Shown here: one piece after another, positions 5,600 through 29,079 of the stretch | Numbering within the stretch: the stretch's first letter is position 1 | Layout of the letters: each line of letters opens with the position of its first letter | Made by a program: the position numbers and the translations under genes | Notes under the pieces: model-generated | The model's database searches: none | What the model was told of the DNA's origin: nothing | Seen by the model: the letters and a program-made list of their open reading frames with translations, nothing else | Assembly: GCA_024278015.1 (NCBI GenBank) | Contig: JAJRUC010000320.1 | Span: 1-45,404, forward strand | Length of the DNA: 45,404 nt | DNA from: Chloroflexota bacterium | Lineage (GTDB): Bacteria > Chloroflexota > Anaerolineae > 4572-78 | Reading direction: 5' to 3'

Positions 5600-5677
5600 A
5601 AGGATGCTATTTTAACACAAAGCAAGGTGTAGACACAAACCCCGGCAATTAAAAATTCGGGTGGTGGTAATTTTTAA

Positions 5678-14723: not shown

Positions 14724-15034
14724 CTCACCTTACGCAGTTGGGAATTTGATGAACTCAAAATACCGGCAATTGTGGTATTGCCCCCACCCCCTAACCGCGC
14801 CGCGTCCCCCAAATTTGGGGGAGTACCCCATCCGGGGCACAGGTGGGGACAAAAAGGGATGCGCGGGGGGGGCGAAGCCCCCTCGCTCTTACTCACTCCC
14901 CCCTGCCCATTGGGAAGCACCCAAACAACGGGCACAGGTGGGGATACAGGGGGGAGGGGAATAGCTGCAATTTCGACTTTTTGCCTCAATTTGAACATCT
15001 CTATTTTGTCAAATCCTCAACCGCGTAAGGTGAG
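14724..15034. mobile_element. MITE-like non-autonomous element (311 bp) carrying C/G-tract hairpin modules
   Basis: Terminal inverted repeats (TIR) CTCACCTTACGCAGTTG (left) and CAACCGCGTAAGGTGAG (right) have 1 mismatch. An identical 7-bp direct repeat AAATTAA abuts both ends (14717-14723 and 15035-15041). The interior contains GGGCACAGGTGGGGA twice. There is no coding capacity. Confidence 0.6.
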
Positions 15035-15060
15035 AAATTAATTAAACTCATATCGCGTCA

Positions 15061-15103
15061 AGGACAGCCCCGCACCCGGTTTTTTGGGTTCCGGGGCTGT
15101 CCT
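15061..15103 (-). terminator. 12-bp stem-loop downstream of the substrate-binding protein gene (possible partial terminator or mRNA stabiliser)
   Basis: AGGACAGCCCCG ... CGGGGCTGTCCT is a perfect 12-bp stem, 23 nt after the stop at 15126. No clean U-tract follows on the minus strand, so confidence is moderate only. Confidence 0.4.
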
Positions 15104-15125
15104 TTAACAAATCATTCAACTGACA

Positions 15126-16616
15126 TCAGGGTCTAATCAGGTCAGCCGTTTTGTAGGTATCCGGATACACAACGGGGGCGTCTGCCGAAGCCTGGCCCAC
15201 TTTTTGATACTGCACTAAAGTGACAGCCGGATCGGGGAATTGATGCCACCATTTGGCGTCAACGCCTTCAGGGATGGGGTTGTGAGTGCCGTATTTAAAG
15301 TAAATGTTGCCCAACGCGCCGGCGTAAGAAATGTTTTCCAGGGCGTTGATGATAGCCGTAGAGTCAGTAGACCCCGCTTCGTTGATGGCCTGGGCCATTA
15401 ACTTGAAGGAATCGTATGCTTCCATAGCGTAAGACTCGGCTACTGACCGGCCTGACCTGGCTATGTACTTGTCAACAAAGGCAGTGGTTTCGGGGGTATA
15501 CAGCGACAGGGGCAACCCAATACGGGTGAAGACACACAGATTGCCGTCAGGCACATTGGCCCAAAAGGCTTCGTTGTCGGCGGCAACCTGATTGCAAATC
15601 ATGGGCACGTCTTGCGGCCCAATGCCGGCTTCGGCGGCCTGCTGCTCAAAATTGAACGAGGTTTCGCCGGTTAGGGTCACCAAAATCATTTCCGGATTCT
15701 CTGCCTTGATACGCTCGATGATACCGGAGAAGTCCTCGGTTCCGATGTCTGCGTTAAAGGTTACGGCCTCAACGCCCAAATCGGCCAGGGCGGCGGTTGT
15801 TTGCTCGGCAGCCGGAATGCCATAGCCCGTATTTTCGGTCATAATCACAATACGCTTCACGCCCAACGAGGCGATGAAGTTAGAGTGGATGGCTGCTACC
15901 TCTGACGACATAGGCGCAATGCGGAAGACTTCGGGGTATTGCACCGAGGTGATTTTATCGTTCCAGGTTTCGGCGAAGACGGTGGGCATACCATTGGCGT
16001 GGGCCACTTCTTTGGCGGTTAGCCCCACAGCGCTATGATATTCGCCAACCACACCCACAACTTTTTCCTGGTCAATCAGGCGTTCCATAGCGGCGGTGCC
16101 TCGTTCCGGCAACCCTTCCGTATCAACCAGAATCATCTCAACCGGTTTGCCCAACACGCCACCGGCCGCATTAACTTCTTCCACGGCGATTTCCATAGCA
16201 ATCTTCATGGCCTCGCCGCCGGTTACAGACCCCGGAGCGCTTAAGGGTGCCAGGGCGCCAATTTTAATGGTGTCGCCGCCGGTTGCGCCCGCCGTAGAGG
16301 TTTGGCCGTCAAAGTAGGCTTGCGCTTCTTCCGAACTGGGAATGTAAATTTTCCAGCCGACTTCAATTTCGTCGGAGTTTTTGATTTTGGCGTAGCTGCT
16401 GTCATCGGCATTTTTCTGGTTGGTGTAGTAGGTAATGGCCGGATAGGCGAAAATATCGCCCAGGAATTTGTCGGCCAGTTTACTGAGCCAATCGTCGGCT
16501 ACCACCACGTAATCTTGCCCGCCATCCTGTGCGGGGGGAGCCGCCACAGCGGCAACGGGAACTATCAACATTAGAATCGCAATCAATACCATCAATTTAA
16601 GCAGATGTTTTTTCAC
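15126..16616 (-). CDS. Leu/Ile/Val-type periplasmic binding protein (ABC substrate-binding) with N-terminal LysM-like module
   Basis: 496 aa with a GTG start and AAAGGAGGAG RBS, plus a signal peptide. Residues about 35-95 (YVVVADDWLSKLADKF...IEVGWKIYIPS) fit the LysM pattern. The remainder is type-1 PBP (IKIGALAPLSAPGS..). Confidence 0.85.
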   Translation of the reverse strand: MKKHLLKLMVLIAILMLIVPVAAVAAPPAQDGGQDYVVVADDWLSKLADKFLGDIFAYPAITYYTNQKNADDSSYAKIKNSDEIEVGWKIYIPSSEEAQAYFDGQTSTAGATGGDTIKIGALAPLSAPGSVTGGEAMKIAMEIAVEEVNAAGGVLGKPVEMILVDTEGLPERGTAAMERLIDQEKVVGVVGEYHSAVGLTAKEVAHANGMPTVFAETWNDKITSVQYPEVFRIAPMSSEVAAIHSNFIASLGVKRIVIMTENTGYGIPAAEQTTAALADLGVEAVTFNADIGTEDFSGIIERIKAENPEMILVTLTGETSFNFEQQAAEAGIGPQDVPMICNQVAADNEAFWANVPDGNLCVFTRIGLPLSLYTPETTAFVDKYIARSGRSVAESYAMEAYDSFKLMAQAINEAGSTDSTAIINALENISYAGALGNIYFKYGTHNPIPEGVDAKWWHQFPDPAVTLVQYQKVGQASADAPVVYPDTYKTADLIRP

Positions 16617-16749: not shown

Positions 16750-17745
16750 TTATTCCTTGTCTTTGGCGCAACGGAAGCCGATGTCGTCGTTGGCGGTAAT
16801 GGTGGGGTCGCCGCCGTTGCGATTGGTGGTAGTCACAAATGCCTCCTCATCGAACCAGCCGCCCCCGCGCAAGCCACGAGTTTCCGGGTTGTAAAAGGGG
16901 TCCTGGTAGTTGCTGCCGGGGTAGGCTTGATAGGCGGAGGCAACCCACTCTTTAACGTTGCCGGCCACATCGAACAAGCCGTACGGGTTGGCCGGGAACG
17001 TCCCCACCGGCAGGGTGCGGCGCTGGCCGCTGTCTTTGCCGTTGAACATTGTGGGGTCGTAGGTATTCCCCCACGGAAAAAGGAAGCCGTCGGGGCCGCG
17101 CGCGGCTTTTTCCCATTCAAATTCGGTGGGCAGCCGTTTGCCCGCCCATTGACAAAAAGCCTGGGCATCGAAAAACGTGACAAATACCACCGGGTTGTTC
17201 TCTTTCCCTGCGGGGAAGACCCAGCGCCAGTTTTGGGGGCTGTTTTGCTGTTCACGATACGTTTGGTAGCCGGTAGCATCCACAAAGGCGGCGAAATCGG
17301 CATTGGATATTTCGTAGGCATCAATTGAAAAGGCGGGCAAATCCATTTTCTGGGCCGGGCCTTCATTTTGTTCGCTGTTGTCGTTGCCCAGCAAAAATGC
17401 GCCGGCCGGAATTTCCATCATAACATCGGTGATGGCCGGGGCCGGGGTGGGTGTGGGCGCTGGTGTGCTGTCTGCGGCGGGTTCTGTGGGCGGAATTGAC
17501 GGGGTGCGGGTGGGAGTAGGGCTGGGACGCGGCGTGGAAGTGGGCGGTAATGGCGGCGGTGTGGCGGTGGGTTTGAGTTTGACCACAGTGGGCGTTGGCG
17601 AAGTAGTTGAACGCGCCGTGGCCCGGGCCACTGATTTATCTTCCACCCGGTCAACAATATCGCCGCAGGCAGCGACATTCAGGGTCATCAGTGCCAGCAA
17701 AAAAAACAGCAGCATCCCTTGATGCAAAAATTTTCCGGTGCGCAT
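16750..17745 (-). CDS. formylglycine-generating-enzyme (FGE/SUMF1) domain lipoprotein with Pro/Thr-rich linker
   Basis: The C-terminal domain has GKRLPTEFEWEKAARG, GNVKEWV and RGGGWF (FGE-sulfatase fold motifs). Lipobox LNVAACG is present. Start set at ATG 17745 with an AGGAG RBS. Confidence 0.8.
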   Translation of the reverse strand: MRTGKFLHQGMLLFFLLALMTLNVAACGDIVDRVEDKSVARATARSTTSPTPTVVKLKPTATPPPLPPTSTPRPSPTPTRTPSIPPTEPAADSTPAPTPTPAPAITDVMMEIPAGAFLLGNDNSEQNEGPAQKMDLPAFSIDAYEISNADFAAFVDATGYQTYREQQNSPQNWRWVFPAGKENNPVVFVTFFDAQAFCQWAGKRLPTEFEWEKAARGPDGFLFPWGNTYDPTMFNGKDSGQRRTLPVGTFPANPYGLFDVAGNVKEWVASAYQAYPGSNYQDPFYNPETRGLRGGGWFDEEAFVTTTNRNGGDPTITANDDIGFRCAKDKE

Positions 17746-18044
17746 CCACGTCTCCTGAAGGGGTTTGATATTATCAAAAGCCGGCAATTCTTGAATAACG
17801 CAACAGAGAGCAATTCAAGCCGCGACATCAAAACTGCAAACAAAAAGCAAAACGCTTCATCCATCCATCGTTGCTTTTGAAGTGGGGTGAGCAATATAAA
17901 ATTTATCAAAAACCATTGACTTTTTTAGTATAACGGCATGGCGATGTTGTGTCAAACTTTGATTAAGGCTCAGAAGAATATCATTATGTGATTTTTGTTT
18001 TGCGCATGTGCGAAAAATCACGAAAGTTATGTGACATTTGTCAC

Positions 18045-18073
18045 TATACAATCAAGAGAGGGATGAGTATAAT
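18045..18073 (+). promoter_or_regulatory. candidate sigma70-type promoter of the arsR-cytochrome-yeeE operon
   Basis: TATACA (18045-18050), 17-nt spacer, TATAAT (18068-18073), located in a roughly 320-bp AT-rich island. The -35 matches only 4/6. Confidence 0.45.
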
Positions 18074-18080
18074 TTGGATA

Positions 18081-18096
18081 GTATATTCGAATATAC
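18081..18096. promoter_or_regulatory. perfect 16-bp palindrome, candidate ArsR-family operator
   Basis: GTATATTCGAATATAC is its own reverse complement. It lies 8 nt downstream of the -10 hexamer and 13 nt upstream of the arsR-like ATG. Confidence 0.5.
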
Positions 18097-18108
18097 GGAT
18101 ATTACCGT

Positions 18109-18468
18109 ATGCAGGTGCAGGGAAATATGAAACGACCGAACACCCAGGAATTAAGAGAAATGCATGCCACATTATGCCAGGCCTTGGCCGATCCAACTCG
18201 CATCGCGCTTCTATATGAGCTTGGTAATGGCCCCAAGCACGTAAATGAATTTGTAAATGCCCTGAATTTGCCTCAGGCAACCGTCTCCCGGCATTTGAAA
18301 ATGCTGCGGGAGCGCTCGTTGGTAAATACCAGGCGAGAAGGCTCGTATATCTACTACAGTTTGGCTGATGAGCGAGTTTTAGGCGCTTTGGATATTATGT
18401 TTTCCGTTAAAAATGACATTTTGGTTCGACAAGGAAATCTGGCAAAAACTTCTTCACAAACCGACTGA
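18109..18468 (+). CDS. ArsR/SmtB-family winged-helix transcriptional regulator
   Basis: LADPTRIALLYELGNGPKHVNEFVNALNLPQATVSRHLKMLRERSLV is the ArsR HTH core. There is a single Cys and no ELCVCD metal site. ATG 18127 is an alternative start. Confidence 0.85.
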   Translation: MQVQGNMKRPNTQELREMHATLCQALADPTRIALLYELGNGPKHVNEFVNALNLPQATVSRHLKMLRERSLVNTRREGSYIYYSLADERVLGALDIMFSVKNDILVRQGNLAKTSSQTD

Positions 18469-18482
18469 AAGTAGGTGATGCA

Positions 18483-19466
18483 ATGCAACCTCTAAAACCA
18501 TTCTCTTTACTGTTGGTTGGCATGGTGCTGATTGTTGTCGGCATGGTGCTGGCTATCCCTCAACCAGCCGAAGCCCAGTGTGGATCTTCGGTTTCGTCTT
18601 GTAAAACGTGTCACGAAACCCGGGGCGAAGACTCTGTCAATACCGAAGGTGCGTGGCACACTGAACACGCTTTTGGTGATTTTTGCGAATTTTGCCACGC
18701 CGGTAACGTGCAGGCCGGCGATAAAGCAGGGGCGCACGAAGGGTTGGCCGAGCCGCTGGGCGACATTGCCGCCAGTTGTCAGGGTTGCCACCCCAATGAC
18801 TTGATGGAGCGCGCCGAAAAATACGCCTCCGTTTTGGGGGTGGAAATCGGTGGTGGCGCCGACAGTGGCAGCAATAGCGACAACAGCAGCAACACCGGTG
18901 GCAGCGGTAACAGCGATTCCGGTAGTGGGGCGACGGCCCCCGTCACGAGTGTTTCCGCGCCGTTGGGCGGAGAGGAAATTGACTACAACCTCCTTTACAT
19001 TGAAACCATCACCCCCGAACCACTCATTAAAAACTGGGGCAACATCATTTTGATTTTGATGAGCGTCGCCGTGGCGGGCGCCTTTTTTGTGACGGCCTGG
19101 AGTTGGGAAGGCTGGGGTAAAGTGGCTGCCGGGTGGATTAACGACAACGTCAATCCCCTTACCGAAGCTGTCTTGGAGGCAAATACCGCCGTCACCGTTG
19201 AAGATGAGCAGGCCGGTTCCATCCCCTCTTCCACCGAACTGGCCGCGCTGTTTGAACGCAAACCGGAACTGAAAACCCTGTGGCCCAAGCTGGCAGAAGG
19301 AAATTCTGTAATGCTTAGAGACCTGAGCCAGATTTTAAGCGACGAAAAACAGGGCGCCCATTTTCTACATACGGTTAGCCGCCTTGACTTCAAATTGGCC
19401 TCGGCCTTGAAGCAGTTGGGCGAAAACGACAGAGAACTTTTATTGGCTCTGGTTAAAGAAATATAA
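18483..19466 (+). CDS. membrane-anchored triheme c-type cytochrome with cytoplasmic C-terminal tail
   Basis: Signal peptide (..PQPAEA/Q) and three CxxCH motifs (CKTCH, CEFCH, CQGCH). A Gly/Ser/Asn linker is followed by one TM (WGNIILILMSVAVAGAFFVTAW) and then an uncharacterised helical tail of about 115 aa. Confidence 0.8.
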   Translation: MQPLKPFSLLLVGMVLIVVGMVLAIPQPAEAQCGSSVSSCKTCHETRGEDSVNTEGAWHTEHAFGDFCEFCHAGNVQAGDKAGAHEGLAEPLGDIAASCQGCHPNDLMERAEKYASVLGVEIGGGADSGSNSDNSSNTGGSGNSDSGSGATAPVTSVSAPLGGEEIDYNLLYIETITPEPLIKNWGNIILILMSVAVAGAFFVTAWSWEGWGKVAAGWINDNVNPLTEAVLEANTAVTVEDEQAGSIPSSTELAALFERKPELKTLWPKLAEGNSVMLRDLSQILSDEKQGAHFLHTVSRLDFKLASALKQLGENDRELLLALVKEI

Positions 19467-19483
19467 ATAAAGGAGACACTTCA

Positions 19484-20017
19484 ATGAGCAAAGTTATGCG
19501 TTGGTTCAAATCGCCCGAATGGTCGCCCTATATTGGGGGGGCCGGGTTAGGGCTGCTGGGCATCCTCGCCCTGCTGTTTACCGACCGCCTGTTTGGAGCC
19601 TCTGGCGCGTTTGAAAATGTGGCTGGCTCTATTATGCACGTTATTTCGCCTGCATTGGCCGAAAATATGTACTGGAAGTTTATTATGCCTGCCGGGTTTG
19701 GTTTTGGGGTAATGATGCTGATTGGCATCTTCCTCGGCTCGATGGCTTCGGCGCTGATTTCCGGTACGTTTAAACTGCGCGCCGTTTCCGATGACCAGTG
19801 GGTGCAGGTGTTCGGCCCCAGCCGCTGGAAGCGATGGGGCATGCTGTTTGGGGGCGCAATTTTGCTTGAGTACGGCGCGGGCATCGCCGGAGGCTGCACC
19901 AGCGGCCTGGCAATTTCCGGCGGTGTGCAACTGGCTCCGGCGGCCTTCCTGTTTATGGCCGGTATGTTCATCTCCGGCATTATTACGGCAATGATACTGT
20001 ACGGAAAGAGGTATTAA
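19484..20017 (+). CDS. YeeE/YedE-family (sulfur/selenium transport, DUF395-type) membrane protein, half-size
   Basis: 177 aa with 4-5 TM segments. The conserved loop GIAGGCTSGLAISG is present. AAAGGAGA RBS. Confidence 0.85.
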   Translation: MSKVMRWFKSPEWSPYIGGAGLGLLGILALLFTDRLFGASGAFENVAGSIMHVISPALAENMYWKFIMPAGFGFGVMMLIGIFLGSMASALISGTFKLRAVSDDQWVQVFGPSRWKRWGMLFGGAILLEYGAGIAGGCTSGLAISGGVQLAPAAFLFMAGMFISGIITAMILYGKRY

Positions 20018-20019
20018 TA

Positions 20020-20571
20020 ATGACAGCTTTACTTCCCGCCTTGATTGTTGGCTTTGCGTTTGGCTGGATTTTGCAAAAATCCCGCTTAACGCAATACGCA
20101 AAAATTGTTAACGTTTTCCGCTTTACCGATACCGCAGTTTTAAAATTTATCCTCACCTCCATTGTGGTTGGCGCGGGCGGCATTTACTTGCTCAAGGATA
20201 TGGGTTTGGTGGCTTTAACCGGAACCACCCCCACCTATATTGTCGGTAATCTGTTGGGTGGCCTGATTTTTGGCGCCGGCATGGCCGGCGCCGGATTTTG
20301 ACCGGGCACTTGCGCCGCCGGTGGCGGCCAAGGCAATGTGGATTATCTGATTCCCGGTGTGTCAGGTTTTTTAGTTGGCGCTATCCTCTTCGGTTTAACA
20401 TACGGTGATGTCTTCCCGGTGATTTCTGCCATCGCCAACCTGGGCAATACTTACATGCCCGAATTGTTCAACGTCAATCATTGGTTACTCATCATCTTTT
20501 TGGCCCTTTTCTCTGTCTATCTGTTTTATATCCTGTCCAAAAAGGGTGAATTCAGAAAAGACAGTCTTTAA
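20020..20571 (+). CDS. second YeeE/YedE-family half-protein interrupted by in-frame TGA at 20299-20301 (candidate selenocysteine codon; alternatively a pseudogene)
   Basis: ORFs 20020..20301 and 20338..20571 share one frame. Read-through gives 183 aa with ..GAGMAGAGF-[TGA]-PGTCAAGG.., so the TGA sits where the family has GFCPG Cys. A SECIS-like hairpin follows. Confidence 0.6.
20309..20332 (+). promoter_or_regulatory. SECIS-like stem-loop downstream of the in-frame UGA
   Basis: CUUG-C-GCCGCC-GGU-GGCGGC-CAAG has a 4+6 bp stem with one bulged C. The G/U-containing apical loop begins 18 nt after the UGA. Confidence 0.5.
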
Positions 20572-20714
20572 ATTTGCGCCGGGTGCGCCCAGAATTTCAG
20601 GAAATCTGGACAAACCAGAGGGAATTCGGGGGGATACCCCCCGCGCCCCCCAGTCTGTCCTAAAACCCTGGACAGACCCATTCGCGCCTTCAGAACAGAA
20701 ATTTGCGTTCGCCA

Positions 20715-20743
20715 TTGATACTGGTGAACACGAACGCTATAAG
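20715..20743 (+). promoter_or_regulatory. candidate internal promoter upstream of the molybdoenzyme genes
   Basis: TTGATA (20715-20720), 17-nt spacer, TATAAG (20738-20743). It lies 29 nt upstream of start codon 20772, with AGGAG RBS at 20761. Confidence 0.35.
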
Positions 20744-20771
20744 CTGGAAGCTATTTTTACAGGAGCATAGC

Positions 20772-23033
20772 ATGACTGATACCAAAAATTTACCCCCTGC
20801 CGAAGACTCCACACTGAATCCATCGCTCTCCCGCCGCCAATTTATGGGCCTGGGCTTGGGCACAGCCGCCGGGGCGGCCTTACTGGGCAAATACACCCTG
20901 CTGCAATCTGCCGACGGCCAAAAGACCGCCGGCAAGCGCGGCCATTATCCCCCCACCAGCTTTGACCGGGAAGTATACACCATGTGTGAAATGTGCGTAT
21001 GGCGATGTGGGGTAAAAGCTAAAGTAAAAGATAACGTTGTTTACAAGCTCGATGGCAACCCCTTCCATCCCCATTCTCGTGGAATGTTGTGTCCGCGCGG
21101 GCAGGCGGGTGTGGCCACCCTGTACGACCCCGACCGCCTGAAATATCCCCTCATTCGCAAGGGCGCTCGTGGCGAAGGGAAGTGGGTGCGGGCCAGTTGG
21201 GAAGAGGCCCTAGATTACGTTGCCAGCCGTATGCTGGAAATTAAAGACACCTACGGCCCCGAAGCAATGGTTTTCAGCACCACCCACAACTTAATCCAAA
21301 CCCAATTTGAAAACCTGCTCAAAGCCTATGGCTCTCCCAATTACGGCACTCAGCGTTCGTTGTGTTTTAATGCCATGATTACCTCGAACCTGCTCACTTA
21401 CGGCATGGAAGAACCGGGCCGTGAGTATTCGCAGGTCAAATACATCATCCTCACCGGCCGTAACTTGCTTGATGCTATCTCTAATTCAGAAACGCAAGAC
21501 CTGGTGGCTGCTTTAAGCCGGGGCGCAAAACTGGTGGTGCTGGACCAGCGTTTTACCAAAACCGCCGCCAAAGCCGATATGTGGCTACCCGTCAAACCGG
21601 GCACAGACCTGGCCTTTTATCTGGCAATGCTCAACGTTATCATCACCGAAGGTCGCTACAATGAGCGCTTTGTTGAAGAAAATACCGTTGGGTTTGAAGA
21701 ACTGAAAGCAACAGTACAGCAATACACCCCCGAATGGGCCGCCAGTAAATGCGAAATCCCGGCAGAAACTATCCGCCAGATTGCTCGTGAATTTGCCGCA
21801 GAAGCGCCTCACGTTTTTGCCCACCCCGGTTGGCGAACCAGCAACTTCACCAACTCGTTCCAAACTTCGCGTGCCGTGGCTATCTTAAACGCCATTGTGG
21901 GCAACTGGGAACAACCCGGCGGCTTTTTTGCGGCAGCAGGCGAAGGAGGCGGCCTGGAACTTGGCTCTGTGCCGCAGCCCCCTTACCCCCGCGTCAGCGC
22001 CTTGCGGCTGGATGGCGTGCCCTGGAAATACCCGCTGGTTCCGCTTAAACTTGGCGTGTTCCAGGAAATCCGCGACAACATCTTGAGCGGAGAACCCTAT
22101 CAGGCGCATGGCTGGTTCATTTACCGCCAAAACCCGGTCAACTCTTTGCCGGAACGCCGTAAAACGATGGAAGCCCTCAGTAAACTCGATTTCATCGTCA
22201 CCACCGATATCAGTATGAACGATACGGCCTGGTTCTCTGACGTGGTGCTGCCAGAGGCCTCTTATCTGGAGCGCTACGACCCCTTGCACGTGATGGGCAA
22301 CACCCTCTTTTTGCGTCAGCCGGTGGTTGAGCCGCTATTTGAAAGTAAACCCGGTCTGTGGATTTTTAAAGAACTGGGTACCCGCCTGGGGCTGGCCGAT
22401 TTCTTCCAGTATGAAGATGAAGAAGACTACATTCGCCAGCAAATTGCGCCGTTGGACATATCGCTGGAAGAGTTGAAGACTCGCGGCTATTACACCGCCC
22501 CCACCGAAGCTGGCAGCGCAGGAGCGGGTGAACAGAAATTTACCTTCAATACCCCCAGCGGCAAAATCGAACTGGCATCTGAAGTGTTGCGCAATAGCGG
22601 CTTTAATGCGGTTCCACAATGGGAAATTCCGACCCTTAATCAGCAGGATGAATTCTATCTGCTTTCCGGGAAAGTGGCGCAGCACACCCAATTTGCCACA
22701 CATAACAATCGACTTTTGCACGAAAGACAACCCGGCAATCCACTGTGGATTAATCCTGAACCCGCCGCCCAACGCAAACTGAAAGATGGCGATATGGCGT
22801 GGGTGGAAAGTGCCGGCGGCAAAGTTAAAACGCCGGTTCACGTCACCGAGCGAATCCGACCCGATAGCGTCTTTATGGTTCCGGGCTTTGGACATACCAG
22901 CAAAGGACTGACCACCGCCTACGGTGCCGGCGTTAGCGATAGCGACTTGCACGTAACCTTCACCGACCCGATTTCCGGCTCTCAAGCGTTGAGCCAGACG
23001 TGTGTAAAAATCTATAAAGCAGACGAATCGTAA
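20772..23033 (+). CDS. Tat-exported molybdopterin (DMSO-reductase family) oxidoreductase catalytic subunit, PsrA/PhsA-like; substrate unknown
   Basis: Twin-arginine leader SRRQFMGLGLGTAAGAA. FS0 cluster motif C-x2-C-x3-C-x27-C (CEMCVWRC...LCPRG). Candidate Mo-ligand Cys in QRSLCFNA. 753 aa. Start set at ATG 20772. Confidence 0.85.
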   Translation: MTDTKNLPPAEDSTLNPSLSRRQFMGLGLGTAAGAALLGKYTLLQSADGQKTAGKRGHYPPTSFDREVYTMCEMCVWRCGVKAKVKDNVVYKLDGNPFHPHSRGMLCPRGQAGVATLYDPDRLKYPLIRKGARGEGKWVRASWEEALDYVASRMLEIKDTYGPEAMVFSTTHNLIQTQFENLLKAYGSPNYGTQRSLCFNAMITSNLLTYGMEEPGREYSQVKYIILTGRNLLDAISNSETQDLVAALSRGAKLVVLDQRFTKTAAKADMWLPVKPGTDLAFYLAMLNVIITEGRYNERFVEENTVGFEELKATVQQYTPEWAASKCEIPAETIRQIAREFAAEAPHVFAHPGWRTSNFTNSFQTSRAVAILNAIVGNWEQPGGFFAAAGEGGGLELGSVPQPPYPRVSALRLDGVPWKYPLVPLKLGVFQEIRDNILSGEPYQAHGWFIYRQNPVNSLPERRKTMEALSKLDFIVTTDISMNDTAWFSDVVLPEASYLERYDPLHVMGNTLFLRQPVVEPLFESKPGLWIFKELGTRLGLADFFQYEDEEDYIRQQIAPLDISLEELKTRGYYTAPTEAGSAGAGEQKFTFNTPSGKIELASEVLRNSGFNAVPQWEIPTLNQQDEFYLLSGKVAQHTQFATHNNRLLHERQPGNPLWINPEPAAQRKLKDGDMAWVESAGGKVKTPVHVTERIRPDSVFMVPGFGHTSKGLTTAYGAGVSDSDLHVTFTDPISGSQALSQTCVKIYKADES

Positions 23034-23074
23034 TCGGCCTTGACCGGATACGAACCCTGATTACGGAGTAAATT

Positions 23075-23656
23075 ATGGCTAATCCCGCAAAAGAATCCAA
23101 TACCCCCCCTAAAAAACGATGGGGTTTTGTGATGGAACCGGAGCGATGTATCGACTGCGAAGCCTGTATGGTGGCCTGCAGTGTTGAAAACCAGGTGCCG
23201 CTGGGCGAACATCGCAACTGGATTTCTCACAAAGAGATGGGCATCTTCCCCGATTTGAACATCACCTTTATGCCCGAAAATTGCCACCATTGCAGCAACC
23301 CCCCGTGCGAGCGCGTATGCCCCACCGGAGCCACCTACCGTCGAGACGATGGTATTGTGCTGGTAGATTACGATAAGTGCATCGGTTGTAAATATTGCAT
23401 GATGGCCTGTCCCTACGATGCCCGCTACGTGAACGAAGAAAAACAGGCCGTTGACAAGTGTACCTTCTGCGTCCATCGGCTGGATGCGGGCTTACCGCCA
23501 GCCTGTGTAGAAACCTGTGTGGGCGGGGCGCGTCACTTTGGCGACCTGAACGACCCGTACAGCGAAGTCTCTAAATTATTGGCCACGCACGATTATTATC
23601 AGCTTTACGAAGAAGCCGGTACTGGCCCAGCCATTTATTACATTAGAGGAAAGTAA
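23075..23656 (+). CDS. 4Fe-4S ferredoxin-type electron-transfer subunit (PsrB/DmsB-like)
   Basis: Four Cys clusters are present: CIDCEACMVAC, CHHCSNPPCERVCP, CIGCKYCMMACP and CTFC...C..C. Confidence 0.9.
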   Translation: MANPAKESNTPPKKRWGFVMEPERCIDCEACMVACSVENQVPLGEHRNWISHKEMGIFPDLNITFMPENCHHCSNPPCERVCPTGATYRRDDGIVLVDYDKCIGCKYCMMACPYDARYVNEEKQAVDKCTFCVHRLDAGLPPACVETCVGGARHFGDLNDPYSEVSKLLATHDYYQLYEEAGTGPAIYYIRGK

Positions 23657-23657
23657 A

Positions 23658-24659
23658 ATGCACGAAGTTGATTTTCACTGGAATATATTAATTGTAATCT
23701 ATCTGTTTACGGCTGGCATTAGCGCCGGAGCATTTGTTATCTCTGGGTTGGCAACGTATTTGGGGGGTGCCAAATACAAACGTATCAGCCGTATTGGCGC
23801 TTTGATTGCTCCCTGGCCGCTCGTATTCGGCCTTTCGATGTTGATGTTCGATCTGACAAAACCGCTGCAATTCTGGTGGCTCTTTTTGACGGTGCAGTGG
23901 ACATCGCCCATGTCAATTGGAAGCTGGCTGTTAACCTTCTTCTCCATCCTCTCCAGCCTCTACTTTTTGCTGTGGATTCCCCGCCCCTGGCGAGACCTGC
24001 TGCGCGTGCCGTATCGTTGGGCAGACGTATTTTCGCCGCGCCGCTGGCAGCCGATGACCCGTGAAGTGGTTGGCATCAGCCGTCGGGTGCTGGCCGCCGT
24101 TGGCTTCCCCATCGGGTTGGGGGTGGGCATGTATACCGGCATATTGCTGGGGGCTATCCCTTCTCGCCCTTTGTGGAACACACCAATGATCGCGCAACTC
24201 TTTCTCTTTTCGGCGATGAGCAGCGGCGTGGCAACCGTACTATTAATTGCCGCCGCCACGCCACCCGCCAAAGAAGGGCATGACCACATGCACCACGAAC
24301 GCCATTTTCTGGTAACGGTTGACGCTGTGTTGATTGTGCTGGAAATTTTTATTGTGATACCCTTCTTCTTGCATCAAGCCTTGAATACATGGAGTTCCGC
24401 CGAATCGGTTAATTTGGTGTTGGGTGGCCCTTTTACGCTGCCCTTCTGGGGAGGCGTTATTTTACTCGGTTTGCTGCTGCCCCTGGCCATCGAAGGATTT
24501 GAGCTGTATCCTGTCGTTTGGAAGGAAGCTGCGGTAAAATATAGTCGTCTGTGGGGCGGCGCAAGTGCCGTTATGGTGCTGGTTGGCGGATTTTTGTTGC
24601 GATACGTCTTTGTTTACGCCGGTCAGGTTTCTCACTTCTTGCCCTTATTAGAAAGGTAG
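23658..24659 (+). CDS. NrfD/PsrC-type integral membrane quinone-interacting subunit
   Basis: 333 aa with about 8 TM segments. It immediately follows the FeS subunit (2-nt gap), the canonical PsrABC order. Confidence 0.85.
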   Translation: MHEVDFHWNILIVIYLFTAGISAGAFVISGLATYLGGAKYKRISRIGALIAPWPLVFGLSMLMFDLTKPLQFWWLFLTVQWTSPMSIGSWLLTFFSILSSLYFLLWIPRPWRDLLRVPYRWADVFSPRRWQPMTREVVGISRRVLAAVGFPIGLGVGMYTGILLGAIPSRPLWNTPMIAQLFLFSAMSSGVATVLLIAAATPPAKEGHDHMHHERHFLVTVDAVLIVLEIFIVIPFFLHQALNTWSSAESVNLVLGGPFTLPFWGGVILLGLLLPLAIEGFELYPVVWKEAAVKYSRLWGGASAVMVLVGGFLLRYVFVYAGQVSHFLPLLER

Positions 24660-24665
24660 GATTTT

Positions 24666-25370
24666 ATGACCATCATAAAGAAGTTGCCCGCTTATTTGGC
24701 CCTGGTTGTGGCTTTGGTTTTGGTTGGATGTAATACCACCGCTGACGAACCCTTAGCCACGGCTCCATCCAAACCCGTAACCGTGGCCGGCAATCTGGAA
24801 GCGAACTATATTCCCAATACAGAAATGGGGCGTCAAGCCTGGCTTGAACAACAATGCGATGATTGCCACGGCCCCATTGGTATGGGCGGCATTGGCCCCA
24901 AACTGGCCGATACCGCCATGAGCTTCGATAGCTTTTTGGTGACGGTGCGCACGGCTATCCTGCCCAAACCCGCTTATCCTGCCGAAGTTTTACCCGGTGA
25001 ACGTGTCTACGATATTTACGCCTGGTTGCGCGCCCAGCAAAATCAACCCGTCGCCCCTGCCCCAACCACTTCTACCACCGAATTGCCCTCTTTTGGAGGA
25101 GAAACGCCTTCCATAGAAGATGCAATGGGTATGACCATTTGGTCTTACGGGGGATGCAGCGTTTGCCACGGTGTGTTTGCCCAGGGCGGCAAAGATGCGC
25201 CCCCACTGGCCGGTATCAACTATCCGGTTGAAGAGGAACTGAGCCGTATGCGCCAAACCGCCTCCGAAATTACGGAACACGCCGCCGATAACATCAGCGA
25301 CGATGTGTTTGCCGAATTGTATCGCTGGTTGCAGGCCGGTTGCACCTACACCGAAGACTGCAATCAGTAA
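24666..25370 (+). CDS. diheme class-I c-type cytochrome lipoprotein
   Basis: Lipobox LVLVGC and two CxxCH motifs (CDDCHGP.., CSVCHGV..), each followed by GG..PPL, which is typical of class-I cytochrome c domains. Confidence 0.85.
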   Translation: MTIIKKLPAYLALVVALVLVGCNTTADEPLATAPSKPVTVAGNLEANYIPNTEMGRQAWLEQQCDDCHGPIGMGGIGPKLADTAMSFDSFLVTVRTAILPKPAYPAEVLPGERVYDIYAWLRAQQNQPVAPAPTTSTTELPSFGGETPSIEDAMGMTIWSYGGCSVCHGVFAQGGKDAPPLAGINYPVEEELSRMRQTASEITEHAADNISDDVFAELYRWLQAGCTYTEDCNQ

Positions 25371-25394
25371 ACCGCGTCTCGTTGTATCAAATAT

Positions 25395-25431
25395 AAAAGC
25401 CGCCTTCGTTGTAGCCTGCGGGGCGGCTTTT
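25395..25431. terminator. bidirectional rho-independent terminator between convergent operons
   Basis: AAAAGCCGCC ... GGCGGCTTTT is a 10-bp stem with A/T tracts on both sides. It lies 25 nt after the cytochrome stop and 30 nt after the TorD-like stop. Confidence 0.65.
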
Positions 25432-25460
25432 ATGTGTGCAATAAAAAACCATGGTTGAAT

Positions 25461-26003
25461 TTATCGGGCCAACTCTGTCGCAAACTCGGCCAACCGTTTG
25501 CCCAACTCCCGATAACAATCCAACTGAGCATGCTTCTCTAAGTCAACGGCAAATTGCGGCAACCAACGCAGCAGGTGGTTGGCTTCAAAGCGGCGGCGGG
25601 CTTGTTCAACCGATTCCGGCGCTTCAGATTGCGCGGCCAAATCCAGCAGATAAGCCGAAAATTGCAGCTCAACCGGCAAAAAATCGGCAGTTTCCTGGGC
25701 TTGCTGTATGTCCCATTCCGCATAAAAATTAGCCACGGCGGCGGTGGTGGCCGTCAATAGTTGCCTGTCCACATACGCCGATTCATACGGTGGGCAGGGC
25801 ACGCCTTCGGCGTTGTTTACAAACAGGCGCGTATGCTCCACCTGCAAATCATCCAGCGACGTTGCGGCAAATTGCGCCGCCAACGCCGTTGCCCACGGCT
25901 GGCCCACGGCCTGGGCCGCCTCTTGCCATTGCAAGTGCAGTTCGGGTTGCGGATAAAGCAAATACAGGCTAAAAAACTGGTACAGCGCGGCAGATACTGG
26001 CAT
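25461..26003 (-). CDS. TorD/DmsD/NarJ-family molybdoenzyme maturation chaperone
   Basis: 180 aa. The pattern LYQFFSLYLLYP..., HTRLFVNN, PCPPYESAY, ADFLPVELQFSAYL matches the TorD family. Confidence 0.8.
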   Translation of the reverse strand: MPVSAALYQFFSLYLLYPQPELHLQWQEAAQAVGQPWATALAAQFAATSLDDLQVEHTRLFVNNAEGVPCPPYESAYVDRQLLTATTAAVANFYAEWDIQQAQETADFLPVELQFSAYLLDLAAQSEAPESVEQARRRFEANHLLRWLPQFAVDLEKHAQLDCYRELGKRLAEFATELAR

Positions 26004-26005
26004 AA

Positions 26006-26458
26006 TTATACCCCCACTCGCGTTTCCGGCGATACGCTTTGGCCGGGATGAATGAAAATTTGTTCCCCATCAAGATTTATTTCCAGGTACGTCATGGGCG
26101 ATGTGGCCGGCCCGTTCAGCACAGCGCCGTGAGCATTAAACCGGCTGCCGTGACACGGACACTGGAAAGTATTATCGGCCACTTGCCCCACCGTGCAACC
26201 CAGGTGCGGGCAAATGGCGCTGATGGCATACAAGCCGGCCTCATCGCGCCCCAACCAGGCTTTGGCTGCCGGCACAAACGTGAGGCTGTTGGCGGCAAAA
26301 TCGCCCATCAACCCGGCTTCTACCGGCCCCGGCAATGGTTGGGTAATTGGCGGCGCAAGAAATTTAAGGCCGCCCTTCACCATCGCCCAGGCGACGGTCA
26401 GCAAGCCGATGTTGCCCAGCCAAATTAAAAACCGGCGGCGGGATGTTTCTTCTGACAT
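26006..26458 (-). CDS. Rieske [2Fe-2S] protein with Tat signal
   Basis: SRRRFLIWLG leader, plus CPHLGC and CPCHGS Rieske boxes. Start set at ATG 26458 with an AGGAG RBS. Confidence 0.9.
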   Translation of the reverse strand: MSEETSRRRFLIWLGNIGLLTVAWAMVKGGLKFLAPPITQPLPGPVEAGLMGDFAANSLTFVPAAKAWLGRDEAGLYAISAICPHLGCTVGQVADNTFQCPCHGSRFNAHGAVLNGPATSPMTYLEINLDGEQIFIHPGQSVSPETRVGV

Positions 26459-26477
26459 AGATTGCTCCTGCAAAAAA

Positions 26478-27866
26478 TTAACGCGCATAGGCGTGGCACT
26501 GGTGGCAATACCGTGATTCCTGTTCGGCGACAGTTTGTTGGCAGCCAGACCCCATTACCGGATTGACCGGATACGTTTTGCCGGTAACTTTGCTGGTTAA
26601 AATTAAGCGCCCGTCAACCTGCTTGGTATTGCCCATCAACTCGCCCCGTTCGGTGATGATAACCTGGTCGCCGATATTCAAAGTGTAATTGGGGTTTATT
26701 TGCGCCTGGCGCAGCGCCGTTTGGTGTTGGGCCGATACGGTAACGACGGTGGGTAACTCTTCCAGGGTGCCGTGGCAGGTGTGGCATTGGGTGTATTGCA
26801 TTTCCTGTTGCTTGGGGTGAATATCGCCGTCGCCCATAATTTCGGCGGACGTGTGGCACTCAATGCAGTCGAGTTCCCATTCGCATAGCGTAAATTCGCC
26901 GATGGGCTGGTAATATTCGCGCAGGCGGCGGCCTTCGGCGGGCATTTGGGCAGAGATGGGCGCGCCCGCCGGAGGGAGGTCATCTCTCAGCAGAAAATCC
27001 ATCTGCCGCAGCGAATAATTGCCCCGGTTGTGGCAGTGGTTGCATTGGTAAAACGGAATGGCAGCGGTCAGTTCGTGGCGGCGCATATGGCCCGGCTCGT
27101 CGGGGGGAATGGTGGGGTCGCTGCCTTGATACAGGCCATCGTTTTGATAAATTACGTGGCAGGCGGCGCAACCCGTAGAGCGATAAAAGTACGGTTCGGC
27201 GCGGGGTGCGGCAGAAAGATGGCAGCCCGCATCCAGACAATTTTCGGCAAATTTTTGGTCGATGGGGTGGCCGGATTGCGCGGGAAATGCTGTCAGTTCA
27301 GCCAACCCTGCCGCTGTGGCGGGGTGGTCATCGGTGATGCCGTACACGCCGTAGAGGGGCGTTTCGGTGGATTGCGCCCCAAAAGAGAAGCGCACCTGGG
27401 CAATGCCCCCGGCGTAGGTTCCCTGCAAACTGCGCAAAACGCCATCGACGTGATTTTTACCTTCATCGGCAAATCCGTTGTGGCAATTGAGGCCGCAACT
27501 TTCCTGGGCCACCAGCAAGTCGCCGGGGTTTTTGCCCCCCCGCAACCCGGTGTGCGCCTGGTCTGCCTTAAGCGAAAGCCCATTTCCGCCGTGGCAACTG
27601 ATGCAGCCAAACGCCTCTACCGGATGCGAAGGGCTGATTTCCGCCAGCCCCATGTGGCACGACAGGCACAATTCCGGCTGGCCCGTCAGTTGCGGCACAA
27701 CCTGCCGCACCCGAATATCAGCGGGCTGTTGAGTGCGCTTAAAATACATGCGCTGGTATTGCTGCCAGGGTTGATTTTGCGTTTGCTGAAAAACAAGGAT
27801 GACGGCGGCAATTAACAATAGTATGCTGCTGACGAAGAGCGCCACGCGCCGATTAGTGGTGAACAC
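26478..27866 (-). CDS. membrane-anchored multiheme c-type cytochrome (up to 9 hemes)
   Basis: N-terminal TM segment. Seven CxxCH motifs (CLSCH, CISCH, CAACH, CNHCH, CIECH, CHTCH, CHQCH) plus CGLNCH (Cx3CH) and CLDAGCH (Cx4CH). GTG start. Confidence 0.85.
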   Translation of the reverse strand: MFTTNRRVALFVSSILLLIAAVILVFQQTQNQPWQQYQRMYFKRTQQPADIRVRQVVPQLTGQPELCLSCHMGLAEISPSHPVEAFGCISCHGGNGLSLKADQAHTGLRGGKNPGDLLVAQESCGLNCHNGFADEGKNHVDGVLRSLQGTYAGGIAQVRFSFGAQSTETPLYGVYGITDDHPATAAGLAELTAFPAQSGHPIDQKFAENCLDAGCHLSAAPRAEPYFYRSTGCAACHVIYQNDGLYQGSDPTIPPDEPGHMRRHELTAAIPFYQCNHCHNRGNYSLRQMDFLLRDDLPPAGAPISAQMPAEGRRLREYYQPIGEFTLCEWELDCIECHTSAEIMGDGDIHPKQQEMQYTQCHTCHGTLEELPTVVTVSAQHQTALRQAQINPNYTLNIGDQVIITERGELMGNTKQVDGRLILTSKVTGKTYPVNPVMGSGCQQTVAEQESRYCHQCHAYAR

Positions 27867-27954
27867 AGGTTAAAAAGAAAATCCTTTCGTTGGTGTGAGG
27901 CGTGAAGACGTGAAACGTGACAAAATCATGCCTCACGCCTCACGTTTTCATGCC

Positions 27955-29031
27955 TCACCGCGCCGCCGCAATGAGGGTCAGAACCACGACCACAAGCGTC
28001 AACCCGGCAAAAATGACTTGCGGCTGCCAGCGTATTCGGGCGAACCACTCGCCCCGGCCCGGCCCGCGCCGGTCGAACAGGGGAATGAGAGCCAGCAGCG
28101 CCAACCCCGCCAGTGGAATGAGCCAACCGGCCCACAGCGGAGACAGGTAGCGCAGCATTTCTTGAATAGCTAAAAAGAACCACGGCGCTTTGGTTTCGCT
28201 GGCCCCGGCGGTTTCTAAATTGGCGATTGCGCCCAAAACGGGCGGGGCCAGCGCCGAAAGGATAATCAGCGCGGCAGTGGCCGCAATGGCGGTGATGGTT
28301 TCCCTGAAGAAGAGCGTCTTGCGGGTAATGAAGGTTCGGGGGCGGGCGCGGGTTGGCGCAGGGTGCGAGATACCGCCATCTACCCGAATACGCCAGATGT
28401 GATACCCCACCGCGCCAATGCCCGGCAACGTTAACCCCATAATGTGCCAGGCGTAAAATCGAAGCAACGCGCTGTTACCCAGGGCGGTATCGCCTACAAT
28501 CAGCCGGTACAATCCCTCTCCAATGCCTGGAATTTCTTTGAGCAGATTGGTGCCAACCAGCAACGCCCAAATACTGCCTTCGTCCCAGCGCAGGGTGTAG
28601 CCGGTAAAATCCCACAGCAGCACAATCACAAACAGCCCCACCCCAATCAGCCAGTTGAAGTCTCTGGGGGAGCGATAGCCGCCGGTAAAAACCACCCGCG
28701 CCATGTGCAGCGCGGCGAAAACGACCATCAATTGGGCCGCCCAGTAGTGTAGCGAGCGCACAAAGCCGCCAAAAGCAACCACGCTATCGATGAGGGCCAG
28801 GCTGGGATAGGCTTGTTCTACGGTGGGAACGTAGTAGAAGGTCAGCAAAATGCCGGTCACAATGGTGATGATGGTAGCTAAAACGGCCAACCCGCCCAGC
28901 CCGAAAGTGTAGGTGAGCCGCGCTCCGGCGGCGGGAATTTGGGGCGGGTGCAAGTTGTAGATGAAACTTTTGTTTTTGCGCCAGAGGCGAATACCGAACC
29001 GGCGGCGTGGGGGGGGCGTTATTTGAATCAT
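27955..29031 (-). CDS. cytochrome b (fused b6 / subunit-IV type) of a Rieske/cytochrome b complex
   Basis: RSLHYWAAQLMVVFAALHMARV (bis-His helix B), FNWLIGV, and the C-terminal APWFFLAIQEMLRY (PEWY-like) motif. Confidence 0.9.
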   Translation of the reverse strand: MIQITPPPRRRFGIRLWRKNKSFIYNLHPPQIPAAGARLTYTFGLGGLAVLATIITIVTGILLTFYYVPTVEQAYPSLALIDSVVAFGGFVRSLHYWAAQLMVVFAALHMARVVFTGGYRSPRDFNWLIGVGLFVIVLLWDFTGYTLRWDEGSIWALLVGTNLLKEIPGIGEGLYRLIVGDTALGNSALLRFYAWHIMGLTLPGIGAVGYHIWRIRVDGGISHPAPTRARPRTFITRKTLFFRETITAIAATAALIILSALAPPVLGAIANLETAGASETKAPWFFLAIQEMLRYLSPLWAGWLIPLAGLALLALIPLFDRRGPGRGEWFARIRWQPQVIFAGLTLVVVVLTLIAAAR

Positions 29032-29079
29032 ATCGCCCCCGATTTTATCACAGACGAGCCGCGCTCACAAAATAGTGTG

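Follow-up and report, generated by a model that had tools for sequence, protein, structure and literature searches.

A conserved Psr-type molybdoenzyme module with dedicated c-type cytochromes and a predicted selenocysteine/cysteine YeeE channel in Anaerolineae

The 45,404-nt stretch of DNA considered here (the window) comes from a Chloroflexota bacterium (Anaerolineae; 4572-78; assembly GCA_024278015.1, contig JAJRUC010000320.1) and harbors at 18109–25370 genes for an ArsR-type repressor, a trihaem cytochrome c, two halves of a YeeE-type channel, the three subunits of a PsrABC-like molybdoenzyme and a dihaem cytochrome c. It is probable that the Psr-type enzyme, its dedicated cytochromes and the channel with its predicted selenocysteine (Sec) or cysteine pore residue form one functional module, whichever the direction in which the enzyme works. 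As a more specific reading we favour, with a probability of about 0.4, an inducible and horizontally mobile respiratory module which reduces an oxidised, thiol-reactive anion of sulfur or selenium and imports the product via the channel. The module extends past 25370 and takes in the genes of a TorD-like chaperone, a Rieske protein, a multihaem cytochrome and a cytochrome b at 25461–29031. The limits of 18109–25370 drawn in the preliminary description of this DNA are too narrow: the Rieske/cytochrome b/multihaem unit (bc unit) reaching to 29031, which was missed there, constrains the bioenergetics of the system.

The 18109–25370 cluster consists of eight co-directional open reading frames (ORFs) on the plus strand. 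Their translations, the Pfam and NCBIfam profiles and the sequence motifs confirm the identities predicted earlier for all of them. The tight spacing is confirmed as well, the intergenic gaps being 1–41 nt with the exception of ~200 nt ahead of psrA.

Gene order is conserved in about 80 genomes, mostly of Anaerolineae, so that the synteny which the preliminary description proposed to look for does exist. A genome scan with PsrA gave 80 loci with 59–92% identity (60–83% among the near-full-length matches). The carriers are nearly all metagenome-assembled genomes (MAGs) of Anaerolineae-type Chloroflexota, namely Anaerolineales, Caldilineaceae, Ardenticatenaceae, Promineifilaceae, Aggregatilineales and Thermoflexales; one Neomarinimicrobiota MAG and one Calditrichaceae MAG are likewise among the carriers. 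ORFs in the related loci were called by a simple custom script, and the statistics given below ignore phylogeny. Among the 52 loci with at least 3.6 kb upstream of psrA, the trihaem cytochrome is encoded in 50, both YeeE halves in 47 and ArsR in 43; in 50/52 the trihaem cytochrome gene has arsR on one side and the YeeE or psrA genes on the other. Where at least 2 kb downstream are available (70 loci), PsrB is always encoded. The order ArsR-cyt3-YeeEA-YeeEB-PsrA is kept down to ~60% PsrA identity, in MAGs of three assigned phyla. It had been allowed in the preliminary description that the genes might prove not to be co-conserved; they are co-conserved.

The bc unit belongs to the same pattern. 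In the 48 loci with at least 7.5 kb downstream, where its genes were sought within 10.5 kb, Rieske, cytochrome b and/or multihaem cytochrome c genes lie near psrA in 41 (~85%); counted one by one, the Rieske protein is encoded in 38, the multihaem cytochrome in 39 and cytochrome b in 36. In the relatives the unit usually follows immediately behind the anchor gene in the same orientation; in the window and in L082 it is convergent. Searches in the reverse direction lead back to the module. Starting from the multihaem cytochrome, module genes were met in 3/3 loci with adequate flank, and among the loci reached in this way the cytochrome was found only within the module. Starting from two homologues of YeeE half B, the same module was reached both times, this YeeE-B subfamily being thus confined to the module in both samples taken.

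The remaining components vary. The NrfD cluster is represented in 53 loci, and an FdnI/PhsC-like cytochrome b anchor of ~270 aa takes its place in 13 loci (L030, L037, L042, L052, L055, L057, L059, L060, L065, L074, L075 and L078 among them); the PsrA subfamily thus switches between both known anchor types of the Psr and Phs enzymes. Only the closest relatives, 11 loci in all, have the gene of the dihaem class-I cytochrome. Five loci that demonstrably lack the YeeE pair encode beside arsR a lipoprotein of 582 aa with four rhodanese domains (L023, 6976–8715, minus strand, and L025, L026, L033 and L062 being examples of its carriers), and so does one contig too short upstream to judge; such a lipoprotein occasionally accompanies the YeeE pair. 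The rhodanese lipoprotein and the YeeE pair may be alternative handlers of one sulfur species. In L087, a separate 539-aa rhodanese protein (4011–5630) occurs together with the YeeE pair. The same 3.7-Mb contig encodes directly after the NrfD gene a 398-aa protein with a VKOR domain (quinone-linked thiol oxidoreductase; 14878–16074); its genes for ArsR, the multihaem cytochrome, the Rieske protein and the FmdE-like protein run divergently from the other module genes. After the Rieske gene, 22 loci (e.g. L034, 16897–17517) encode a protein that has an FmdE domain and a zinc finger of the DksA/TraR type. The window lacks this protein, which may serve in the maturation of the molybdoenzyme. L014, L015 and L017 (MAGs labelled Neomarinimicrobiota, "bacterium" and Calditrichaceae) have the complete module together with its bc unit, at 63–64% PsrA identity. 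These copies are explained either by horizontal transfer of the module as one unit or by mis-binning.

The catalytic subunit (20772..23033, +; 753 aa) carries the twin-arginine translocation (Tat) motif SRRQFMG and matches the three domains PF04879, PF00384 and PF01568 (Fe4S4, molybdopterin and dinucleotide-binding) of PsrA-like enzymes with molybdenum bis(pyranopterin guanine dinucleotide) (Mo-bisPGD); the N-terminal cluster motif C-x2-C-x3-C-x27-C is found in its translation. The closest PDB match is Thermus PsrA (2vpw; 488 bits, 38% identity). Cys198, the putative Mo ligand, and His172 align to Cys173 and His145 of this protein, in agreement with the cysteine ligand proposed before. The scores with curated models are 615 bits for PhsA, 295 for Fdh-alpha, 253 for DmsA, 157 for ArrA and 119 for TtrA. 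The cut-off of the PhsA equivalog NF012032 (694) is not reached by the window protein, and the ten nearest 50%-identity representatives score 461–656 bits; the cut-offs of ArrA and TtrA (1600 and 1750 bits) are far out of reach. In a library of representatives at 50% identity the best match has 59% identity (984 bits) and the next one 45% (634 bits), and because of this fall in score the PsrA clade is considered discrete. By its sequence, the catalytic subunit is thus assigned to the PsrA/PhsA/SrrA family as a discrete subfamily distinct from ArrA and TtrA. The earlier designation as a PsrA/PhsA-size molybdoenzyme holds at the level of the family, and the low ArrA and TtrA scores exclude those two clades. 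A study reportedly implicates, by its title, a Psr homologue in tetrathionate respiration of Shewanella ANA-3. PsrA, PhsA, SrrA and archaeal SreA are intermixed in one unresolved lineage, for which reason phylogenetic placement cannot settle the substrate (PMC10100899). All characterised members of the PsrA/PhsA/SrrA lineage are reductases of polysulfide, thiosulfate, selenite or sulfur (PMC10100899).

The two other subunits follow directly. PsrB (23075..23656, +) is a four-cluster ferredoxin according to its matches to Fer4_11 and related profiles and to four Cys groups in the translation, and the NrfD/PsrC-type membrane anchor with a quinone site (23658..24659, +) matches PF03916 with 168 bits. 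PsrB also scores 209 bits with the NCBIfam DsrO equivalog (cut-off 200); the TtrB model is higher in raw bits and there is no dsr context, and automatic annotation of the window PsrB as DsrO could be wrong.

The channel is encoded by two half-size genes. Half A (19484..20017, +; 177 aa, PmpA-like) covers positions 170–309 of the PF04143 profile, i.e. its C-terminal half, and half B (20020..20571, +; 183 aa, PmpB-like) covers positions 2–155, i.e. its N-terminal half. Each of them contributes one pore residue, Cys138 within GGCTSG in half A and the predicted Sec94 within G-F-U-P-G-T-C in half B. Cys138, present in 67/67 orthologues, aligns to Cys293 and Sec94 to Cys91 of the YeeE/TsuA protein of Spirochaeta thermophila, both of which are indispensable for that transporter (Tanaka 2020, as cited in PMC11582611). 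Both halves stay far below the cut-offs of the TsuA and YedE/FdhT transporter models, as seen in half B with NF052577 (46.9 bits, cut-off 400), NF041049 (32.2, cut-off 645) and NF033796 (32.5, cut-off 350), and the DUF6691 score of the halves is also under its cut-off. With 46.9 bits for the TsuA model and 32.5 bits for the YedE/FdhT model in half B, the halves favour thiosulfate-transporter models.

The frame of half B passes through an in-frame TGA (20299–20301, +) and continues to 20571. Of 68 orthologues adjacent to PsrA homologues, 42 have TGA at the aligned codon and 26 have TGC/TGT, and this position is the sole one with recurrent in-frame stops across the module. Single tblastn alignments span the TGA with 50–80% identity on either side. 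Elsewhere in the window TGA serves as a normal stop, for example at the end of arsR. A reading of half B as a pseudogene was rejected for the conservation among the orthologues. A SECIS-like (selenocysteine insertion sequence) hairpin, CUUG-C-GCCGCC / GGU loop / GGCGGC-CAAG, is predicted by folding at 20309..20332 (+), and G+C-rich hairpins starting ~10 nt past the U of UGA are kept in 39/39 distinct TGA sequences with GGU, GGGAG or GUCC loops. The local folding energy in the window from +10 to +42 is −13.9 kcal/mol for TGA forms and −11.2 kcal/mol for Cys forms (Mann-Whitney p = 2e-5, ignoring relatedness), while the energy of the whole 57 nt does not separate the two forms (p = 0.13). RNAalifold on 20 Sec-type sequences revealed no compensatory pair in a fixed register, because the register shifts between lineages and the stem is also coding. 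A scan of 17500–29500 with Rfam at E up to 1 found no SECIS and no molybdenum cofactor riboswitch, and no selA, selB, selD or tRNA-Sec gene is located within the 45-kb window. Judging by the exchange of TGA and Cys codons, the TGA of half B is predicted to be a genuine selenocysteine codon, which bears out the possible selenoprotein transporter of the preliminary description at a site equivalent to Cys91 of YeeE. A cysteine at position +4 is found in 41/42 Sec forms and in 13/26 Cys forms (Fisher p = 3.6e-6), which suggests Cys98 as the resolving partner for a selenenylsulfide. Since the catalogue of predicted selenoproteins of prokaryotes already lists YeeE/YedE proteins that contain Sec, with the motif GUxSG (PMC13188914), the present protein is a new subfamily in a new context and not a new selenoprotein family.

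The resemblance of the pair to known proteins is closest for PmpA/PmpB and SoxT/SoxR, where two half-size genes, the C-half before the N-half and with one conserved Cys each, have an ArsR-type neighbour (PMC11582611). A split YeeE pair beside an ArsR-type regulator is thus a known theme. For PmpA and PmpB a heterodimer serving sulfur import and signalling is proposed, and related proteins take in zero-valent sulfur (Li et al. 2024, PMC11582611); import of zero-valent sulfur by PmpAB-like proteins is attributed to Liu 2023 in PMC11582611. Of the YeeE-like SoxT proteins, SoxT1A brings in the sulfur to be oxidised, and SoxT1B transduces the signal to SoxR, a repressor of the ArsR type (PMC11582611). 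In contrast to PmpA/PmpB, with ~130 aa each, the window halves have 177 and 183 aa and a Sec at the Cys91-type site; the window repressor has one Cys and not two, and the pair is embedded in a molybdoenzyme operon. With YeeE/TsuA-YeeD/TsuB of S. thermophila (PDB 6leo, 8j4c), a system of thiosulfate uptake, the pair shares the Pfam family and both essential pore cysteine sites. It differs in that the channel is split into two genes, the equivalent of Cys22 is Thr, a YeeD/TusA gene is lacking and the TsuA model NF041049 gives 32 bits (cut-off 645). The catalogued Sec-containing YeeE/YedE (WP_012471001.1; PMC13188914) also has its Sec within a glycine-rich pore motif of a YeeE-family membrane protein, whereas here a half-size subunit carries the motif G-[FY]-U-P-G-T-C, and the module context is absent from that review.

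The trihaem cytochrome (18483..19466, +; 327 aa) has a signal peptide, a Gly/Ser-rich linker, one transmembrane helix and the haem motifs CKTCH, CEFCH and CQGCH, and past the transmembrane helix it has a helical C-terminal domain. Three CxxCH motifs are found in 68/70 orthologues; H59, H62 and H85 are invariant. An extra cysteine, Cys33, located in the Gly/Ser-rich stretch right after the signal peptide (AQCGSSxSSCKxCH), is nearly invariant. The protein has no match in Pfam, NCBIfam or PDB sequences. Among the 120 homologues listed of 999 matches, the named ones are all "hypothetical protein" and none has a Pfam domain. Its AlphaFold model has a predicted local distance difference test score (pLDDT) of 70 with a low-confidence haem domain, and a Foldseek comparison of the model with the PDB found no relative. 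By its predicted features it is an unannotated, membrane-anchored periplasmic family. The dihaem class-I cytochrome (24666..25370, +) is a probable lipoprotein (LVGC lipobox) with Cytochrome_CBB3 and Cytochrom_C matches and the motifs CDDCH and CSVCH.

The bc unit and its chaperone are encoded on the minus strand. The chaperone (25461..26003; PF02613, 87 bits) is of the TorD/NarJ type that serves Tat-exported molybdoenzymes. The Rieske 2Fe-2S protein (26006..26488; PF00355) has a twin-arginine signal. The membrane-anchored multihaem cytochrome c (26478..27866) contains about nine haem motifs, i.e. seven CxxCH, one CxxxCH and one Cx4CH, and a search of PDB sequences with it gave no meaningful match. 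The cytochrome b (27955..29031) belongs to the b6/petB type (PF00033 and PF13631). A Rieske/cytochrome b pair and a class-I dihaem cytochrome are useful only with a high-potential partner, and therefore two circuits, one reductive and one oxidative, are coherent.

The repressor encoded by the first gene (18109..18468, +; 119 aa) belongs to the ArsR/SmtB family (HTH_5 and NF033788 matches). Its Cys23 is conserved in 44/45 orthologues, no second Cys is conserved, and Cys41 of SqrR aligns to Tyr36. It is for these reasons not a two-Cys sensor of the BigR/SqrR/SoxR type, and this assignment was rejected; the BigR hidden Markov model gives 48 bits against a cut-off of 155. The earlier description of the regulator as BigR/SqrR-like has to be corrected accordingly. 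Another candidate that was rejected is TsoR, which regulates Haft's "three selenoprotein operon": this is the best specific model (NF045707), at 65.7 bits with a cut-off of 115.

A sigma-70-like promoter, TATACA-17-TATAAT, is predicted before arsR at 18045..18073 (+) from a match at 10 of 12 consensus positions. It is preceded by the CRP-type palindrome GTGACATTTGTCAC (TGTGA-N6-TCAC; 18031..18044), whose centre lies ~42 nt upstream of the predicted transcription start, a geometry that would be typical of class II activation. GTGA-N6-YCAC occurs within 200 nt upstream of arsR in 14/44 loci, where 0.015 are expected per 240 nt (Poisson p ~1e-14), and this suggests that an activator of the CRP/FNR family controls the module. 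The perfect palindrome TATATTCGAATATA (18082..18095) is placed between the −10 box and the start of arsR, and similar elements TATTCGAATA are at the same place in L032, L054 and L050; by this position TATATTCGAATATA is a plausible operator of ArsR. These short upstream palindromes were found by script and were missed by an inverted-repeat finder.

The module would work in the reductive direction as follows. Menaquinol electrons would reach PsrAB via PsrC and/or via the Rieske protein and cytochrome b, the multihaem cytochrome and the trihaem cytochrome; polysulfide might be reduced through the anchor alone. PsrA would reduce the anion, with tetrathionate, polysulfide or sulfane sulfur and selenite as candidate substrates, in the periplasm. 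The product, e.g. thiosulfate or sulfane sulfur, would pass the pore of YeeE-AB through transient Se-S/S-S bonding to Sec94/Cys98 and to Cys138, and where the YeeE pair is missing the rhodanese would handle it. Once imported, the product would be used by the cell and would modify Cys23 of ArsR and so lift the repression, and the CRP/FNR-type site would give added global control. The reductive direction is favoured because all characterised members of the family are reductases, because a Psr homologue reportedly has a part in tetrathionate respiration and because the CRP/FNR-type box fits a reductase operon. Sulfane-type or otherwise thiol-reactive sulfur or selenium chemistry is suggested by the PsrA family, by the rhodanese alternative and the PmpAB-type Sec/Cys channel, and by the single-Cys repressor and the free Cys of the trihaem cytochrome. 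In particular, the four-rhodanese lipoprotein of the YeeE-less loci points to handling of thiosulfate or sulfane sulfur, and Sec at the Cys91 site with Cys at +4 points to covalent chalcogen chemistry in the pore.

Several observations weigh against this reductive module. The enzyme has its own quinol anchor, so that a bc-type feed is unneeded for reduction; the association with the bc unit fits the oxidative direction equally well, and the unit is missing from 7/48 loci. Relative to Arg332 of Thermus PsrA, the arginine of the window protein is displaced by one residue in the ungapped alignment (PGWR vs PTRH). Cys23 of ArsR is not at the SqrR/BigR site. The 80 loci of the genome scan, like the further contigs inspected, all stem from MAGs or metagenome contigs. 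The module contains no gene of a YeeD/TusA partner, which is essential for TsuA-mediated uptake according to work cited in PMC11582611 and PMC13047784. Finally, the substrate of Psr/Phs enzymes is not inferable from sequence (PMC13047784, PMC10100899).

The bc unit is also the starting point for the reverse circuit, in which PsrABC would be a sulfide or sulfane-sulfur (or thiosulfate-forming) dehydrogenase reducing menaquinone. The bc unit and the dihaem cytochrome would then pass the electrons to a terminal oxidase or nitrogen-oxide reductase, and YeeE-AB would import zero-valent sulfur, which would be oxidised or assimilated in the cytoplasm and would signal to ArsR. Molybdoenzyme and bc unit are both quinone-linked, and their working in series is the simplest reason for the co-conservation in 41/48 loci. 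The class-I dihaem cytochrome is similar to cytochromes that donate electrons to oxidases, and Psr of Wolinella reportedly has a reversible sulfide dehydrogenase activity in vitro. An ArsR-type repressor with a YeeE-like importer is an arrangement of sulfur oxidisers (SoxR/SoxT; PMC11582611), and the uptake of zero-valent sulfur by PmpAB-like proteins (Liu 2023, cited in PMC11582611) points the same way. Nevertheless, none of the characterised PsrA/PhsA/SrrA members is physiologically an oxidase (PMC10100899), the role in sulfide oxidation is normally filled by SQR, there are no sox, dsr, shdr or pdo genes among the conserved neighbours, and the CRP/FNR-type box is more typical of reductase operons. 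The oxidative direction is, on balance, only a little less probable than the reductive one. We consider it unlikely that the proteins form a chalcogen-transfer supercomplex. In such a complex Sec94/Cys98 facing Cys138 would pass sulfane sulfur or selenium as a covalent Se-S/S-S relay and not as a free anion, the swinging Cys of the trihaem cytochrome would load or unload the channel oxidatively, as SoxXA does with SoxY, and the Psr enzyme and the private Rieske/cytochrome b/~nine-haem unit would close the circuit. If true, this would be the long-sought entry route of periplasmic sulfane sulfur into the cytoplasm.

It is also conceivable that there is no joint function at all and that an ordinary PsrABC/PhsABC, a PmpAB/ArsR persulfide-stress cassette and a general complex III travel together in a respiratory island. 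The closest PDB protein is indeed Thermus PsrA and the best model PhsA, ArsR with PmpAB is known as a stand-alone stress module (Gristwood 2011, as cited in PMC11582611), 7/48 loci are without the bc unit and five without YeeE, and the window has its bc unit in a convergent operon of its own. Mere adjacency is made quite unlikely by the ArsR-cyt3-YeeEA-YeeEB-PsrA order kept to ~60% PsrA identity in three assigned phyla, by the trihaem cytochrome gene inserted between arsR and the YeeE/psrA genes in 50/52 loci, by the YeeE-B subfamily (two samples) and the multihaem cytochrome that were found only inside the module, and by the discreteness of the PsrA clade (984 to 634 bits). A selenium-specific function, i.e. 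a selenite reductase of the Srr type that serves respiration or detoxification, with uptake of its product via a YedE-like selenium channel for selenoprotein synthesis, appears improbable. It would agree with the presence of SrrA within the same lineage (PMC10100899), with the ties of YedE/FdhT-type proteins to selenium transport (NF033796 match; M. maripaludis YedE, as cited in PMC11582611), with the channel being itself a predicted selenoprotein and with selenite as a high-potential acceptor that fits a bc-type feed. However, the halves favour TsuA over YedE/FdhT models (half B, 46.9 vs 32.5 bits), and selenium is not obligatory since 26/68 orthologues have Cys. A Sec-dependent selenium importer would itself need selenium beforehand, no selD, selA or selB is nearby in the 45-kb window, and both the rhodanese partners, with their four domains, and the abundant occurrence of the module in MAGs from sludge and sediments hint at sulfur.

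For the reductive module the nearest characterised enzyme is PsrABC of Thermus thermophilus (2vpw), with the same Tat-exported Mo-bisPGD subunit, four-cluster ferredoxin and NrfD anchor; the differences are the identity of only 38% in PsrA and the register of Arg332. To our knowledge, the Thermus psr operon is without cytochromes, YeeE, ArsR and bc unit. Salmonella PhsABC (NF012032) is represented by the top curated model for the window PsrA (615 bits), yet this score is under the equivalog cut-off of 694 and the window anchor is NrfD; the FdnI-like anchor of 13 relatives presumably resembles Salmonella PhsC. The Srr operon has rhodanese-like accessory genes, as do the YeeE-less relatives of the module, and we know of no YeeE pair or bc unit described for Srr. 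SrrABC of Bacillus selenitireducens is of the same PsrA/PhsA/SrrA lineage (PMC10100899). Two further systems are comparable by analogy only. The first is DsrMKJOP, where the trihaem DsrJ is teamed with PsrB-like DsrO and NrfD-like DsrP and where the window PsrB passes the DsrO cut-off; the trihaem cytochrome of the window, however, has no detectable sequence relation to any annotated family, and dsrMK genes are absent. The other is the selenate respiration chain of Thauera selenatis, in which SerABC is fed by a bc1 complex and cytochrome c4. It has a periplasmic molybdoenzyme supplied by Rieske/cytochrome b and a dihaem cytochrome c, although SerA is in a different branch of the molybdoenzyme family.

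PsrABC, PmpAB with an ArsR regulator, Sec-containing YeeE and Rieske/cytochrome b with multihaem cytochromes are thus each known separately. The claim that the operon type is undescribed stands insofar as full-text searches of the literature found none and met no account of the fixed combination, the discrete PsrA subfamily, the free-Cys trihaem cytochrome or the U-x3-C pore motif; it has to be restricted insofar as the PmpAB/ArsR theme and Sec-YeeE were already known (PMC11582611, PMC13188914). The Psr-type subfamily is large and discrete, it is widespread in Anaerolineae of sludge, groundwater, sediments and hot springs, and it is automatically annotated as polysulfide/thiosulfate reductase; its substrate and direction affect the assignment of sulfur cycling to these abundant bacteria. 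The Sec/Cys exchange at the Cys91 site together with the Cys four residues on suggests that the pore residue is a nucleophile and not just a hydrogen-bond donor, a question that bears on the movement of sulfur by YeeE, SoxT and PmpAB channels. The trihaem cytochrome and the dedicated bc unit illustrate a way of connecting a quinone-linked molybdoenzyme with cytochromes of the c type.

The flanks of the window encode branched-chain amino-acid and sugar ABC transporters, an FGE-sulfatase-like protein and others, which are unrelated to the module and not conserved. Just upstream of the module, 16750–17787 (−) encodes a protein that is anchored in the membrane and combines a Pro/Thr-rich linker with a domain of the FGE-sulfatase (formylglycine-generating enzyme-like) type; its gene is not kept beside the module in other genomes. 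A bidirectional terminator-like hairpin, AAAAGCCGCC...GGCGGCTTTT, is predicted at 25395..25431 between the two convergent operons. A promoter-like site before the cytochrome b operon (29042..29070, −) has the sequence TTGTGA-17-TAAAAT and an extended TG; like the promoter before arsR, it is predicted solely from its match to the consensus. The stem-loop between the cytochrome b and multihaem cytochrome genes (27896..27958, −; −43.5 kcal/mol, z = −5.3 against shuffles), which gave the only match of the Rfam scan, at chance level and to mir-9447 on both strands, may be an element of mRNA processing or stability.

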